Positions 10,394 to 14,049 are shown, numbered from the stretch's first letter. The stretch: 32,000 nucleotides of DNA from an archaeon (GCA_028279805.1 JANQMZ010000007.1:600001-632000), one strand, 5' to 3'. Translations and numbers: made by a program. Notes: generated from the letters alone by a model not told the origin.

Positions 10394-10467
10394 GGGCCCG
10401 TAGCTCAGCCTGGTAGAGCACTGGGCTTTTAACCCAGGTGTCGAGGGTTCGAATCCCTCCGGGCTCA
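10394..10467 (+). tRNA. tRNA-Lys (anticodon TTT)
   Basis: GGGCCCG-TA-GCTC..GAGC-A-CTGGG-CTTTTAA-CCCAG-GTGTC-GAGGG-TTCGAAT-CCCTC-CGGGCTC-A. No intron and no encoded CCA. Confidence 0.92.
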
Positions 10468-10500
10468 CCTAATTTAACAGCACAAAAAGGGAAGCCAATC

Positions 10501-10574
10501 GGGCCCATAGCTCAGCTCGGCAGAGCAGCAGGCTCTTAACCTGCGTGTCGTGGGTTCAAATCCCACTGGGCTCA
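10501..10574 (+). tRNA. tRNA-Lys (anticodon CTT)
   Basis: GGGCCCA-TA-GCTC..GAGC-A-GCAGG-CTCTTAA-CCTGC-GTGTC-GTGGG-TTCAAAT-CCCAC-TGGGCTC-A. Confidence 0.92.
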
Positions 10575-10616
10575 CTAAAAGATTTTATTAAGCCTTGCTA
10601 TCCTTTTTTTTAGAAC

Positions 10617-10690
10617 GGGAAGGTAGCTCAGCCTGGGAGAGCACATGGCTGAAGACCATGGTGTCGCGAGTTCAAATCTCGCCCTTCCCA
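10617..10690 (+). tRNA. tRNA-Phe (anticodon GAA)
   Basis: GGGAAGG-TA-GCTC..GAGC-A-CATGG-CTGAAGA-CCATG-GTGTC-GCGAG-TTCAAAT-CTCGC-CCTTCCC-A. Confidence 0.92.
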
Positions 10691-10741
10691 TAATCTAATT
10701 GAATATGTCCAGGACTAACCCGGCAAATAATAAAAAAATAG

Positions 10742-10758
10742 TGGGGCTTTCAACCCCA
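10742..10758 (-). terminator. Hairpin plus T-run terminator of the polybasic gene
   Basis: Minus strand reads TGGGG-TTGAAAG-CCCCA followed by CTATTTTTTT. Lies about 25 nt after the stop at 10784. Confidence 0.5.
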
Positions 10759-10783: not shown

Positions 10784-11266
10784 CTATTTTCTCCTTCTTC
10801 TTTTTCTAGGAGCTGCTTTTCTGCGTTTTCTTCTCTTTGGCGCAGCTTTCTTAGCTCTTCTTTTTCTTCTTTTAGGAGCCGCTTTTTTACGCCTTCGTTT
10901 TTTAGGAGCTGCTTTTTTTGCTGTTTTTCTTCTTCGTCTTTTCTTTGGAGCTGCTGCTTTTTTTCTTCGTCTTCTTTTTGGAGTTGCTTTAGCTTTTCTT
11001 CTTTTCCTTCGTTTAGGTGCTGCTGCCTTTTTTCTTCTCCGTCTCTTTGGAGCCGCTTTCTTTGCTGTTCTCCTTTTTCTGCGTGTTGTTTTTTTAGCTG
11101 CGGTTTTTCTTCTCCTTCTTTTTGGAGCTGCTTTTCTTGTTGTTTTTCTTTTTCTTCTTTTTGGTGCAGCCTTAGCTTTTCTTCTCCTTCTTTTAGGAGC
11201 CGCCTTTTTCACTGTTTTTCTGCGTCTTTTCTTTGGAGCAGCTTTTTTTCTCCTCCTTCTAGCCAT
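10784..11266 (-). CDS. Polybasic tandem-repeat protein, ~12 x A-A-P-K-R-R-R-R-K (protamine / histone-H1-tail-like)
   Basis: 160-aa ORF made almost only of R, K, A, P and T. Strong SD GAGGTGA lies about 9 nt before the ATG, with TATA-like TTAAATATAAG further upstream and a terminator hairpin downstream. The DNA shows an imperfect 36-45 nt periodicity. Confidence 0.7.
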   Translation of the reverse strand: MARRRRKKAAPKKRRRKTVKKAAPKRRRRKAKAAPKRRKRKTTRKAAPKRRRRKTAAKKTTRRKRRTAKKAAPKRRRRKKAAAPKRRKRRKAKATPKRRRRKKAAAPKKRRRRKTAKKAAPKKRRRKKAAPKRRKRRAKKAAPKRRKRRKAAPRKRRRRK

Positions 11267-11381
11267 AAGTTTTTTTTCACCTCGTAAAAAGTTGTATCAT
11301 TTAAGCAAAAACATAATTAAACTTATATTTAAAAGTAACTTTTATTTTTTTTTTAAAATTAATTATTTTTTTTTAAAACTT

Positions 11382-12128
11382 TTACAGGTTTTGATATTCT
11401 TCGTCTATTTTGTGAACAGTTATTCCTTTTTCATCTATTGTTAAAGGATGCAAATCTTCGGAATGTTTTGTTGAACGCATTTTTCTGATATGCAAAGTTC
11501 TGTTGCTTTGTGTTCCCGTGCTCATGTAATGCAATACTATTACTCCGTCAACAACATATTCTTCTATTCCGTATTTTCCATACTTGTTTTCTCCTTCCTG
11601 TGCTTCCGAAATAAGTAACGCGGTTGCTCCCGACCTGGCAAGCATATAACTAAGTTTTAAAACAGTGTTCCGTATGTCTGAATCATTTTCAAAATTGAAA
11701 CCCAGTGAGGGAATGGAGTCAAGAACAACTCTTTTGGCGCCCATTCTTTTTATTACTCTCATGATTTCCAGCAAAAGCTTGTCAACATCAAATCCTGTGC
11801 TTGGCAAGGAAAATTCTTCTTCTGAAGGCAGGCCCAGTTTTGTTACGCTTCCGTCAATTATCTGAAGCATGTTTTCTTCTTCCAACTTTTTTAAATCCCA
11901 GCCAAACCTTAAACAATCCTGTCTTATCAAATCAGGTCGTTCATCCAGTGTTACATATACTCCCGGTTCCCTGAATTCTTTTGCTCCTTTGTAAACATAT
12001 TCAACCCCAAAAATTGTTTTGCCTGTTCCGCAGCCTCCGCTAAGCAAAACAGAGCGGCCTTTGGGAAAGCCCCCCTCTATCAATCCGTCTAATCCTTTTA
12101 TTCCTGTTTTAACTCTTTCCATTGCCAC
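11382..12128 (-). CDS. KaiC-like / RecA-superfamily single-domain ATPase
   Basis: 248 aa. TGIKGLDGLIEGGFPKGRSVLLSGGCGTGKT (Walker A). Walker B-like VVLDSIPS. Typical of the archaeal KaiC/RadA-paralog family. Confidence 0.8.
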   Translation of the reverse strand: MAMERVKTGIKGLDGLIEGGFPKGRSVLLSGGCGTGKTIFGVEYVYKGAKEFREPGVYVTLDERPDLIRQDCLRFGWDLKKLEEENMLQIIDGSVTKLGLPSEEEFSLPSTGFDVDKLLLEIMRVIKRMGAKRVVLDSIPSLGFNFENDSDIRNTVLKLSYMLARSGATALLISEAQEGENKYGKYGIEEYVVDGVIVLHYMSTGTQSNRTLHIRKMRSTKHSEDLHPLTIDEKGITVHKIDEEYQNL

Positions 12129-12162: not shown

Positions 12163-14049
12163 CTAAATTCTTAAAACTTCGTTCACACTATCCGTTTTTC
12201 TTAATTTTTCTAAAATTTTCTCAAGCTGCTGTGAATTTGATATTTCCAGATTAAATGTGCAAACAGCTGCATTATTTTTTGAAACTCTTGCTTCTGTGCT
12301 TATTATGGCCGCCTTGTTTTTTGCTATATTGTTAAGCAAATCTGTTAAAAGACCTGGCCTGTCGAAAGCATTTACCCTTAGTTTTGTAAAATACTGGTTT
12401 TTTTTGTTTCCCCAGCCTATTTCAATTTTGTTTTTTAAATTCAGTTTTTTTGTTTCTTCACAGTTTTTTCTATGAACAACAATTTTTCTCTTAGTTGTTT
12501 TGTATCCTGTTATTTGATCGCCGGGAAGAGGGTTGCAGCATTCTGCCAGTCTTACATTTTTATCCTGTGTTGTTTTAATTCCTTTTTTGTCTTTTTCCTT
12601 TTTTTTAATTCCGGAAAGCCTTAATCCCAGCTTTCTTCTTATTTTTGTTTTGGCTTTCGGGCTTTTTACAATTCCAAGCCACTGGCTTTTTGTGTTTGTT
12701 TTGTTTGATGTAAGTATTTCAACAGTGTCTCCGTTTTCAAGCCGGTGGTCAATGGGAACCCCTTTTTTGTTTACAATTGCTTTTTCATATTTGTGCCCTA
12801 TCTCCGTATGAACAGAGTAAGCAAAATCCAAAGGCACAGAACTCTCTGGCAAAACTACAAGCATTTTTTTGGGAGTGAATACAAATATTTCTTTTTTTCC
12901 GAAATCTATTCTCATGGATTTTAACAGTTTTTCAGAGTTTTGAAATTTTCTCTGCCATTCAAGAAGCTGTTTTGCCCAGGTTAGTTTTTTGTCAAAATAC
13001 CTGTCTTTTGCAAATTTTTTATAATGCCAGTGTGATGCCACTCCTTCCTCTGCATTTCTGTGCATTTCCCAGGTTCTTATCTGAACTTCCACAACACTCC
13101 CGTTTATCTGAACTGCGGTGTGCAGGCTTTGATACTTATTTGGTTTTGGGTGTGAAATGTAGTCGTCAAAATGTCCTGTTGAATCAAATCTGTGATGAAT
13201 TAATCCAAGAGCACGGTAACAGTCAACAACATTTTCACAAATTATTCTGATTCCAAGCAAATCATTAATTTCTTTCATTTTTTTATTGCTTTTTTTTATT
13301 TTTTTATAAATGCTTGCAAAACTTTTTGGCCGCCCTTCTATTCCCGCATCAATTTTGTTTTTTTCAAGAATTTTTTTCAAGTCTTTGATTATTTTTTTTA
13401 TTTTTCTTTCTCTTTCCGTTCTTTTTTCTTTAATGCTTTTTTTAATTTTATCATAAGCTTTGGGATTTAACGCTTTGAAAGACAAATCAGTCAAAAGCCA
13501 TTCAATTTCATACAATCCCAGCTTGTGAGCCATTGGAACATAAACATCAAGATATGCTTTTGCCAGTTTTCTTGTTTTTTTTATGGGAACCTGTTCCATG
13601 TTTCTCATGTTTTCCAGTGACGCGGCAAGATTTACAAGAACCGTTCTGACATCTTCAGAGACAGCCAACAAAATTCTTGAAAGTTCGTTTCCTGAAACAA
13701 TTCCGATGTTTTTTTTTTCAATCTCATTAAGTTTTTTGAGTTCCGCAACCAAACCGGACACTTCTTTTCCGAATTGTTTTCTGAGTTCAGGTTCAAGTTC
13801 CCGGTTTTCATCCAGAACATCATGCAATAATCCTGCACAAACAGTTTCAAGTTCAACTTTTTGTTCTGCCAAAAGATAGGCCGTGTTTAAAGAGTGTGTT
13901 ATGAACGGTTTTCCTGAAAGTCTTTTTTTGTTTTTATGAACTTCTGATGCAAAATCATATGCTTTTTTTAAAAGTTTTTTGTTAAAAGAACGATTGTTTC
14001 TTGCAACAGCTTTTTTAAGCTCAGAAAAACTTCTATCTCTGTATTTCAT
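12163..14049 (-). CDS. rel: Long bifunctional RelA/SpoT homolog (HD hydrolase + (p)ppGpp synthetase + TGS + Zn-finger/helical + ACT)
   Basis: 628 aa. HD domain GLLHDVLDE. Synthetase blocks GRPKSFASIYKKI, DLLGIRIICE, HPKPNKYQSLHTAV, EVQIRTWEMHRNAEEGVASHWHYK. TGS block IFVFTPKKMLVVLPESSVPLDFAYSVHTEIGH. Also CCNPLPGD...HRKNC, and ACT-like LRVNAFDRPGLLTDLLNNIA. Confidence 0.9.
   Translation of the reverse strand: MKYRDRSFSELKKAVARNNRSFNKKLLKKAYDFASEVHKNKKRLSGKPFITHSLNTAYLLAEQKVELETVCAGLLHDVLDENRELEPELRKQFGKEVSGLVAELKKLNEIEKKNIGIVSGNELSRILLAVSEDVRTVLVNLAASLENMRNMEQVPIKKTRKLAKAYLDVYVPMAHKLGLYEIEWLLTDLSFKALNPKAYDKIKKSIKEKRTERERKIKKIIKDLKKILEKNKIDAGIEGRPKSFASIYKKIKKSNKKMKEINDLLGIRIICENVVDCYRALGLIHHRFDSTGHFDDYISHPKPNKYQSLHTAVQINGSVVEVQIRTWEMHRNAEEGVASHWHYKKFAKDRYFDKKLTWAKQLLEWQRKFQNSEKLLKSMRIDFGKKEIFVFTPKKMLVVLPESSVPLDFAYSVHTEIGHKYEKAIVNKKGVPIDHRLENGDTVEILTSNKTNTKSQWLGIVKSPKAKTKIRRKLGLRLSGIKKKEKDKKGIKTTQDKNVRLAECCNPLPGDQITGYKTTKRKIVVHRKNCEETKKLNLKNKIEIGWGNKKNQYFTKLRVNAFDRPGLLTDLLNNIAKNKAAIISTEARVSKNNAAVCTFNLEISNSQQLEKILEKLRKTDSVNEVLRI

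Follow-up and report, generated by a model that had tools for sequence, protein, structure and literature searches.

A small archaeal gene for an arginine- and lysine-rich repeat protein, a candidate neutraliser of nucleic acid

What might an archaeon do with a protein that is built almost entirely of arginine and lysine clusters separated by short neutral spacers? This question is raised by an open reading frame (ORF) of 160 amino acids (aa) on the minus strand of a stretch of 32,000 nucleotides (nt) from an archaeal assembly (GCA_028279805.1, JANQMZ010000007.1:600001-632000), the whole of which was analyzed and is hereafter called the window. An initial annotation, made from the sequence alone, had described the ORF as a protamine-like gene of about 12 AAPKRRRRK repeats with strong expression signals, and had suggested that its product may condense DNA or RNA or serve as a counter-ion to polyanions. 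We asked whether the ORF is a gene, whether relatives of the host possess it, and to which known proteins and functions its product, hereafter the polycation, may be compared.

Coding evidence and the protein product

The sense strand of the ORF is almost pure A/G and nearly free of stop codons, and three other frames are open or almost open over the same tract; an open frame is therefore no evidence of coding at this locus. We accordingly relied on codon-position statistics and on the corresponding gene of a relative, rather than on ORF length. Across 12 aligned unit cores, codon positions 1 and 2 had mean entropies of 0.33 and 0.36 bits and position 3 one of 0.82 bits, and in the Ala and Pro codons the first two positions were invariant while the third was fully degenerate (third-position entropy up to 1.0–1.5 bits). 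Codon differences between units comprised 234 synonymous and 121 non-synonymous changes, the latter being nearly all exchanges of K and R. Unit lengths varied by whole codons only, and every period reported by Tandem Repeats Finder (TRF; 6, 9, 15, 30, 33, 36, 39, 66, 72 and 144) was a multiple of 3. Codon usage resembled that of the genome, with AAA accounting for 82% of Lys codons and AGA and AGG for 69% and 15% of Arg codons, compared with 87%, 67% and 18%, respectively, in 33 other ORFs of the window. The amino acid composition was far from that of the local proteome, in which Lys amounts to 13.2% and Arg to 5.1%; the Arg share of the product (34%) is 6.7-fold higher, in a genome with a GC content of about 34%.

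It might be argued that the locus yields no protein and is merely an open polypurine tandem repeat or a non-coding RNA. Besides the stop-free purine strand with its several open frames, this explanation could draw on the failure of a cluster database and of homology tools to return such a protein (see below), and on the fact that the counterpart in a relative was left uncalled in its assembly. However, it would account neither for the third-position bias and whole-codon insertions and deletions nor for the genome-like codon usage, and no usable start codon was found on the plus-strand frames across the tract. Moreover, in two distant genomes an ATG lies 8–10 nt past a conserved 12-nt ribosome-binding block, and a stop codon lies just before a terminator. 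We thus consider a non-coding origin extremely improbable. A Logan contig (L001, from SRR20820740; here and below, L-numbers designate the loci compared) was identical to the window over 13,615 nt including the ORF, its reads being possibly shared with the source assembly; the ORF sequence is thus not explained by the error of a single assembler. It represents a genuine gene, which is under protein-level constraint and native to its genome. The view of the initial annotation that it does not look like a random ORF is thus upheld by the third-position variation, the whole-codon indels and the native codon usage.

The product has a mass of 19.5 kDa and a charge of +103.5 at pH 7, and its composition is R55 K49 A33 P12 T9 M1 V1, in which Arg and Lys together make up 65%. 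It contains no acidic or aromatic residues and no Gly, Ser or Cys, and its only large hydrophobic residues are Met1 and Val19. When the sequence was split at A-[A/T]-P, 12 units were obtained, with lengths of 10–14 aa apart from one unit of 25 aa. The units open with AAP (ATP once), which is followed by 6–7 basic residues, and three of them contain exactly AAPKRRRRK. The Arg/Lys clusters number about 14, each of 5–7 residues, and are separated by AAP, AAAP, TA, TT, TV or TAA. Neither a signal peptide nor a hydrophobic segment is present. AlphaFold2, run without an alignment, gave a mean predicted local distance difference test (pLDDT) value of 64 and a predicted template modelling (pTM) score of 0.18, with a single helix at the proline-free stretch 56–71; the product is thus predicted to be intrinsically disordered, without a fold. 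Hence the repeat number of the initial annotation is right, and the absence of acidic, aromatic and large hydrophobic residues is borne out save for Met1 and Val19. The resemblance to protamines, histone H1 tails and Hc2/AlgP-type proteins also stands, in that basic clusters alternate with short neutral spacers and no fold is predicted.

Expression signals and the slot between KaiC and tRNA-Phe

The signals expected of an expressed gene surround the ORF (Table 1). An anti-Shine-Dalgarno match of at least 7 nt was seen in only 3 of 34 ORFs of the window, the polycation gene being one of them. The TATA box starts 67 nt upstream of the ATG; over both strands (64 kb), the window contains just 8 TTTAWATA sites, this one included. 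With a promoter and a terminator of its own, the gene is monocistronic. The strong Shine-Dalgarno (SD) sequence, TATA-like box and hairpin with T-run noted in the initial annotation were all located, and all have counterparts in the relative described below. These signals suggest that the gene is probably highly expressed and its product abundant.

Table 1. Features of the polycation locus and of other parts of the window discussed in the text
Feature	Position	Strand	Remarks
Polycation coding sequence, 160 aa, 12 A-[A/T]-P-(K/R)6 units	10784..11266	minus	ATG 11266-11264, TAG 10786-10784; third-position entropy, whole-codon unit lengths, genome-like codon usage
SD sequence GAGGTGA within conserved block ACGAGGTGAAAA	11277..11283	minus	10 nt before ATG; 12-nt block identical in L129
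Promoter block AGTTACTTTTAAATATAAGTTTA: stretch resembling a transcription factor B recognition element (BRE) and TATA box TTTAAATA	11315..11338	minus	About 90% identical to L129, flanking intergenic sequence diverged
Terminator: hairpin TGGGGTTGAAAGCCCCA, then CTATTTTTTT	10732..10758	minus	7-bp hairpin with 4 G-C pairs at 10758-10742, 26 nt past the stop codon
tRNA-Phe(GAA)	10617..10690	plus	Convergent with the ORF; edge of the conserved tRNA-Lys/Lys/Phe–SerRS block; context only
KaiC-family ATPase gene	11382..12122	minus	Directly upstream; synteny anchor, no sign of co-transcription
tRNA-Lys(UUU)/tRNA-Lys(CUU)/tRNA-Phe(GAA) cluster	10394-10690	plus	By SerRS
RelA/SpoT homologue (RSH)	12163-14049	minus	628 aa, full length
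780-aa protein	21766-24108	minus	
393-aa protein	24118-25299	minus	Adjacent to the 780-aa protein
S19e	27927-28601	plus	
L39e-like ORF, 82 aa	28937-29185	plus	
L31e	29190-29723	plus	

The window contains the archaeal markers SRP RNA, TFIIE-alpha, aTrm56, RadA, RPA, PcrB/GGGP synthase, S19e and L31e. Orthologues of its KaiC-family protein at 70–78% identity are labelled Candidatus Diapherotrites or Iainarchaeum, and beyond its own record (100%; NCBI and Logan) the nearest homologue in the searched collection was 78% identical. Judged from these markers, the host is a small-genome DPANN archaeon (Diapherotrites/Iainarchaeia).

We inspected eleven KaiC orthologues within their contigs, the comparison covering the region around KaiC. 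In Iainarchaeia relatives, the blocks TIM–RelA/SpoT–KaiC and tRNA-Lys/Lys/Phe–SerRS–Trm56–TFIIE-alpha are widely conserved, and between KaiC and tRNA-Phe lies a variable slot occupied by LysRS, a Big_7 protein, NUDIX or the polycation gene. In most lineages this slot holds a class-I LysRS, at times with a Big_7 protein, NUDIX or others, and no basic repeat ORF.

One relative, L129 (GCA_964532265.1), has the same gene order as the window, namely KaiC–X–tRNA-Phe/Lys/Lys–SerRS–Trm56–TFIIE-alpha. Within a 947-nt gap that appears empty in its annotation, we found an uncalled ORF reading MVTKKRTTKRKAATTRKKATTKKRTTKRKAATTRKKATTKKR before and KKATTKKRTTKRKAATTRAKTRRKK, followed by the stop codon, after a run of 100 N. 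The ORF begins with MVTKKRTTKRKAATTRKKATT, and its repeat unit, KKRTTKRKAATTRKKATT, is unlike that of the window. The visible part comprises K23 T20 R12 A10 (52% K+R); its 54-nt units are identical at 54/54 positions, and the 100-N scaffold gap (1347-1446) lies inside the repeat. Upstream of this ORF, the block AGTTAyyTTTAAATATwAGTTTA and the 12-mer ACGAGGTGAAAA are shared with the window, while the remaining intergenic sequence has diverged; downstream, a hairpin and T-run follow straight past the stop codon (z = –3.8). The two genomes are distant, with identities of 58% for SerRS, 62% for Trm56 and 77% for KaiC, and alignment of the two repeat proteins gave z = 2.1 over composition-preserving shuffles. 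We read the L129 ORF as a positional orthologue, in which composition, position and signals appear to have been kept and the repeat unit to have been replaced. Frame constraint, a conserved start with its ribosome-binding site and an orthologue were all found for the polycation gene, the sole positional orthologue holding a 100-N gap. Selection for composition and for the arrangement of clusters, and not for a particular sequence, would account both for the different unit of the orthologue and for the empty profile searches described below.

The tRNA-Lys/tRNA-Lys/tRNA-Phe cluster by SerRS also occurs in L123, L128, L129 and L131, with only one tRNA-Lys visible in L131. A functional tie between the adjacent tRNA-Lys genes and a Lys-rich gene was considered and rejected, because this cluster is kept in relatives that lack the gene. 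A scan of metagenomes with SerRS returned one relative, at 45% identity, in which no basic ORF adjoined.

Several of these relatives carry another small gene with a basic tail (L128:1155-1562, L131:628-1020, L133:1684-1953, L134:1409-1723, L132:1600-1830 and L123:525-905). Its product consists of an acidic, conserved N-terminus of about 45 aa (M..K.[VI].[DE]II[AE]EM[RK][KR]EL...F.P) and a K/A/P-rich, H1-like tail of 35–90 aa; it had no Pfam match and only 4 hits, all hypothetical, among 5.8 billion proteins. These proteins resemble the polycation in lineage, in being encoded by small monocistronic genes and in their long polycationic tail, whereas they differ from it in having an N-terminal module, a lysine-rich tail and another locus, near TIM. 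We rejected a derivation of the polycation gene from this family: the promoters are non-homologous, the similarity to the tail does not exceed that of shuffles (z = 0.3), and the window contains no homologue of the N-terminus.

Some neighbouring genes are also of note. The RSH of the window comprises HD_4, RelA_SpoT, TGS and ACT_4 domains, and the TIM–RSH–KaiC block is kept in L123, L124, L128 and L132-L134; as far as we are aware, archaea seldom possess long RSH enzymes. Basic or charged extensions occur in several proteins: L31e has a K/P-rich N-terminal and a K/E-rich C-terminal extension, the L39e-like ORF a basic C-tail, S19e a K/E/P/Q C-terminal extension of about 75 aa, and the SerRS of relative L124 (8367-8741) a K/A-rich terminal tail. 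In the 780-aa protein, which has no convincing Pfam family, a module of about 390 aa is present as a tandem duplicate; the protein is paralogous to the 393-aa protein (36–44% identity, E = 1e-65). The RadA gene of L134 (1-275) contains an intein with a LAGLIDADG domain, its product having 828 aa in the precomputed Pfam listing.

Family searches and comparable polycations

No family was assigned to the polycation by hmmscan against Pfam-A at either E ≤ 0.01 or E ≤ 10, and no match was found in NCBIfam (E ≤ 10), PHROGs (E ≤ 10) or PDB sequences. A word-indexed HMMER search of 5.8 billion proteins returned 8000 candidates, none of them at E ≤ 1e-3. In an exhaustive phmmer search of 1.84 billion representatives, the sole hit, a BUD13-like protein of eukaryotic origin in which DSDTSPPRRKRH is repeated, was rejected as a spurious, low-complexity coincidence. 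Exact-sequence look-up in a clustering of 15 billion proteins found neither the ORF nor nine bacterial analogues. The call of the initial annotation for composition-aware tools proved apt, since Pfam, NCBIfam, PHROGs, PDB and the two HMMER searches all failed to return a true homologue.

Protamines are made of Arg clusters with 1–4 small neutral residues (Pro/Ala/Thr/Val) between them, an arrangement presumed to serve charge neutralization. The polycation shares with them the clusters and short neutral spacers, the lack of acidic residues and the lack of a fold, whereas protamines are eukaryotic, sperm-specific, typically 30–60 aa long and at least 50–70% Arg with little Lys, and no homology is apparent: with 34% Arg, 31% Lys and 160 aa, the product matched no Pfam protamine family (for the context of protamines, see PMC12751476). 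Chlamydia Hc2 (HctB), a protein of 165–237 aa that binds DNA and condenses nucleic acid, likewise consists of tandem basic units, the number of which varies (PMC2848022). Hc2 and the Hc2-like proteins of Bordetella and Burkholderia resemble the polycation in being disordered and composed nearly entirely of tandem basic K/R/A/T/P units, the composition of the L129 unit KKRTTKRKAATTRKKATT being especially Hc2-like. However, Hc2 is bacterial and lysine-dominated, with pentamers arranged in 36-aa elements, whereas the polycation is archaeal, has 34% Arg and is organized in clusters of 6–7 residues. The product gave no match to the Pfam profiles HC2 and Hc1 (E ≤ 10), and its short tandem basic units (12 units, 65% K+R), without acidic residues, make up almost the whole of it, as in that family.

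Polycationic Ala/Pro/Lys low-complexity repeats are also present in AlgP, in the C-terminal region of MDP1/HupB and in the C-terminal domain of histone H1. In mycobacterial MDP1, this polycationic region is disordered and compacts DNA (PMC10810275, PMC5974015), and AlgP of Pseudomonas, an H1-like repeat protein, localizes to polyphosphate (polyP) granules and spaces them (PMC9239181). In these bacterial and eukaryotic proteins the tails are lysine-based and attached to folded domains, whereas the polycation is domain-less. It lacks the N-terminal domain of AlgP and has a different repeat unit, and neither a Pfam hit to linker histones H1/H5 nor a globular domain in the AlphaFold2 model was obtained. 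Among the archaeal chromatin proteins known to us (histones, Alba, MC1, Cren7/Sul7d, HTa and others), each binds DNA through a folded domain. Matches to the histone fold, Alba, MC1, Cren7/Sul7d and HTa were absent from the Pfam, NCBIfam and PDB results (0 matches), and the product is predicted to be disordered. An H1/Hc2/protamine-like polycation is thus a kind of protein known from bacteria and eukaryotes; our searches revealed neither a counterpart described in archaea nor a family in which it would fit.

To look for comparable genes by nucleotide sequence, we scanned a genome collection with back-translated AAPKRRRRK. The matches listed, which did not extend to DPANN genomes, included 120 bacterial loci, mostly chance single matches in high-GC bacteria, and ORFs with at least 2 copies of the motif were present at 26 of these 120. 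Among the matches listed, the analogue genes are standalone and encode 51–139 aa, for example MAAKRRKKAAAK(AAPKRRRKKAAAK)n (loci L012, L014, L025, L063, L065, L077-L080, L092, L108, L118, L120, L121 and others), and most of them are (AAPKRRRKKAAAK)n genes of freshwater Actinomycetota (Candidatus Nanopelagicaceae, 'Ca. Planktophila' and others). Limnocylindrus and another Chloroflexi metagenome-assembled genome (MAG; L003 and L018) contain a looser, K/A-rich version ending in AAPKRRRRK. The analogues possess an AGGAG ribosome-binding site and a conserved leader, and show an excess of third-position variation; in Nanopelagicaceae, the genomic context MarR–X–MFS–PanB–NadE is conserved. A tRNA fragment or known RNA in this 5΄ leader of the actinobacterial analogues was considered and rejected, as ARAGORN and Rfam found nothing. 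The peptides APKRRRRK, PKRRRKKAA, AAPKRRRK and AAKKAAPKRR were not found in the searchable literature.

The actinobacterial analogues are similar to the polycation gene in their near-same motif and N-terminus (MAAKRRKKAAAKAAPKRRRKK versus MARRRRKKAAPKKRRRK) and in being standalone and domain-less with a good ribosome-binding site. In contrast, they are bacterial and shorter, contain more Ala and Lys and less Arg, and lie in another genomic context. Alignment of the window protein with Nanopelagicaceae proteins gave z of about 10 over composition-preserving shuffles, compared with z = 2.6 for the Chloroflexi protein. Because the likeness consists of one short motif drawn from a four-letter alphabet, it could stem from convergence or from homology or transfer. 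Actinobacterial contamination or a recent transfer was rejected for the window sequence, as its codon usage, archaeal TATA and SD signals and synteny are all native.

Basic repeat regions were also noticed in larger proteins. A 323-aa protein of gammaproteobacterial MAGs (L041:3086-4057, minus strand; L068:7786-8001, plus strand) is polycationic over its N-terminal 150 or so residues, which include AAPKRRRRK, and has a DksA/TraR-type C4 zinc finger fused to them at the C-terminus; it is similar to Streptomyces DdbA, which combines an H1-like domain with a DksA-like domain (PMC3643593). Viral contigs returned five loci, none of them with a comparable gene; one high-GC contig (L139:9982-12579, IMGVR_UViG_3300046780_000888) contains an open frame of 866 codons for a phage-like protein, in which several hundred residues are extremely R/K/A-rich and include AAPKRRRRK twice, the C-terminal part that comes next being rich in Gly, Ala and Gln.

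The initial annotation had further proposed that the repetitive DNA makes the locus variable in length. Length variation and assembly breakage were seen in analogues only, namely in the gap and perfect units of L129 and in the range of 51–139 aa among the actinobacterial genes. The repeats of the window gene have diverged at synonymous sites (TRF matches of 65–80%) and should thereby be stabilized, and the Logan contig is identical over the ORF. Length variation at the window locus is nevertheless plausible.

Possible functions of the polycation and their meaning

The neighbourhood indicates no pathway, and we derive the functional reading from the chemical nature of the product and from the precedents described above. 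The gene is real and constrained at the protein level, its expression signals are conserved, and its product is predicted to be disordered and matches no known family. From this basis, we infer an abundant product, nucleic acid as its ligand and condensation as its effect. With a charge of +104, no signal peptide and strong expression signals, the polycation would bind the most available polyanion, which within the cell is nucleic acid. We therefore regard the neutralization or condensation of nucleic acid, without sequence specificity, as moderately probable, and DNA as a somewhat more likely main ligand than RNA. The basic clusters would anchor on nucleic-acid phosphates without regard to sequence, the Ala/Pro/Thr spacers would act as flexible linkers between anchors, and charge neutralization could bridge or condense DNA, possibly RNA; one molecule could neutralize about 50 bp. 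It may be speculated that a unit of 10–14 residues, when extended (about 35–45 Å), lies near one turn of the DNA helix. That Arg is so abundant in the product of an AT-rich genome would argue for selection for tight, protamine-like binding over cheap lysine tails.

Several points weigh against this reading. The sequence leaves DNA, RNA and polyphosphate undistinguished as ligands. Only a single positional orthologue was found, and a run of 100 N interrupts its presumed reading frame. In the KaiC slot of nine other Iainarchaeia lineages no polycation ORF was found, its place being taken by class-I LysRS, Big_7, polyprenyl synthetase and others. To neutralize about 1 Mb of genomic DNA in full, each cell would by our estimate need roughly 2x10^4 copies, which is a considerable burden at so small a cell size. 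Finally, Diapherotrites generally have histones, and a role in bulk chromatin is thus not needed a priori. The initial annotation had pointed to the lack of a visible histone gene in the window, and we indeed found no histone or Alba gene in its 32 kb, small ORFs included. However, the window represents <4% of its contig of at least 853 kb, and a published listing (PMC6136690, Table 1) includes Diapherotrites among the groups that encode histones; the argument from this absence is therefore weak.

RNA could take the place of DNA, the polycation then being directed to RNA or ribosomes as an RNA chaperone, a counter-ion of rRNA or a factor of hibernation or storage. Arg-rich clusters have an affinity for RNA no lower than that for DNA, and Hc2/Hc1-type proteins have also been reported to bind RNA. 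The host lineage moreover adds low-complexity basic extensions to proteins of translation (L31e, the L39e-like protein and the SerRS of L124), and the gene lies among tRNA and aminoacyl-tRNA synthetase genes. This neighbourhood is, however, no operon, given that the gene has its own promoter and terminator, and the tRNA cluster is kept in relatives without the gene; a match to a ribosomal-protein family was likewise not obtained. We consider an RNA-directed role unlikely.

Polyphosphate or another polyanion is a further conceivable partner, with which the polycation might associate in the manner of AlgP, or the protein might be a general counter-ion that replaces polyamines or Mg2+. The localization of AlgP at polyP granules (PMC9239181) is consistent with this idea, as are the position of the gene two genes downstream of the RSH, which is associated with the starvation response, and the occurrence of analogues in genome-streamlined planktonic bacteria. 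However, the RSH–KaiC block is also found in relatives without the gene, so that the adjacency is unspecific, and AlgP is Lys/Pro/Ala-rich with an N-terminal domain, whereas half of the basic residues of the polycation are arginine and no domain is present. A partner of this kind appears quite improbable.

Many DPANN archaea are episymbionts, and the polycation might accordingly be an exported Arg-rich effector, cell-penetrating or antimicrobial, acting against a host or competitor cell. Poly-Arg/Lys peptides in general cross and perturb membranes (PMC13523643). The lack of a signal peptide or hydrophobic segment and of secretion genes nearby, together with a length of 160 aa and a charge of +104 that place the product far beyond known cell-penetrating peptides, renders export very improbable.

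The neutralization or condensation of nucleic acid may also be viewed on a wider scale. Tentatively, and as a rather unlikely extension, the polycation might represent a cross-domain class of domain-less (A/T)2-3-P-(K/R)6 polycations in ultra-small or streamlined prokaryotes, which would act as protamine-like bulk counter-ions or condensers and perhaps replace polyamines. The proposed members would be DPANN Iainarchaeia, freshwater Nanopelagicaceae and, in a looser form, Limnocylindrus, and such genes would have been missed because bias filters, clustering and gene callers drop them.

If nucleic acid is indeed the ligand, a domain-less polycation, half of whose basic residues are arginine, would add a protamine/Hc2-like principle to the biology of the archaeal nucleoid or of archaeal RNA, in DPANN cells with their extreme cell volume and ion and polyamine supply. 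For annotation, the locus indicates that standard tools miss genes of this kind: the clustering lacked the exact sequences, HMMER returned nothing real, and the L129 orthologue was left uncalled. The near-same repeat in a conserved small gene of abundant freshwater Actinomycetota suggests a general charge-neutralizing solution in streamlined cells, and a cross-domain class, if it exists, would be considerably more interesting than a single archaeal gene.

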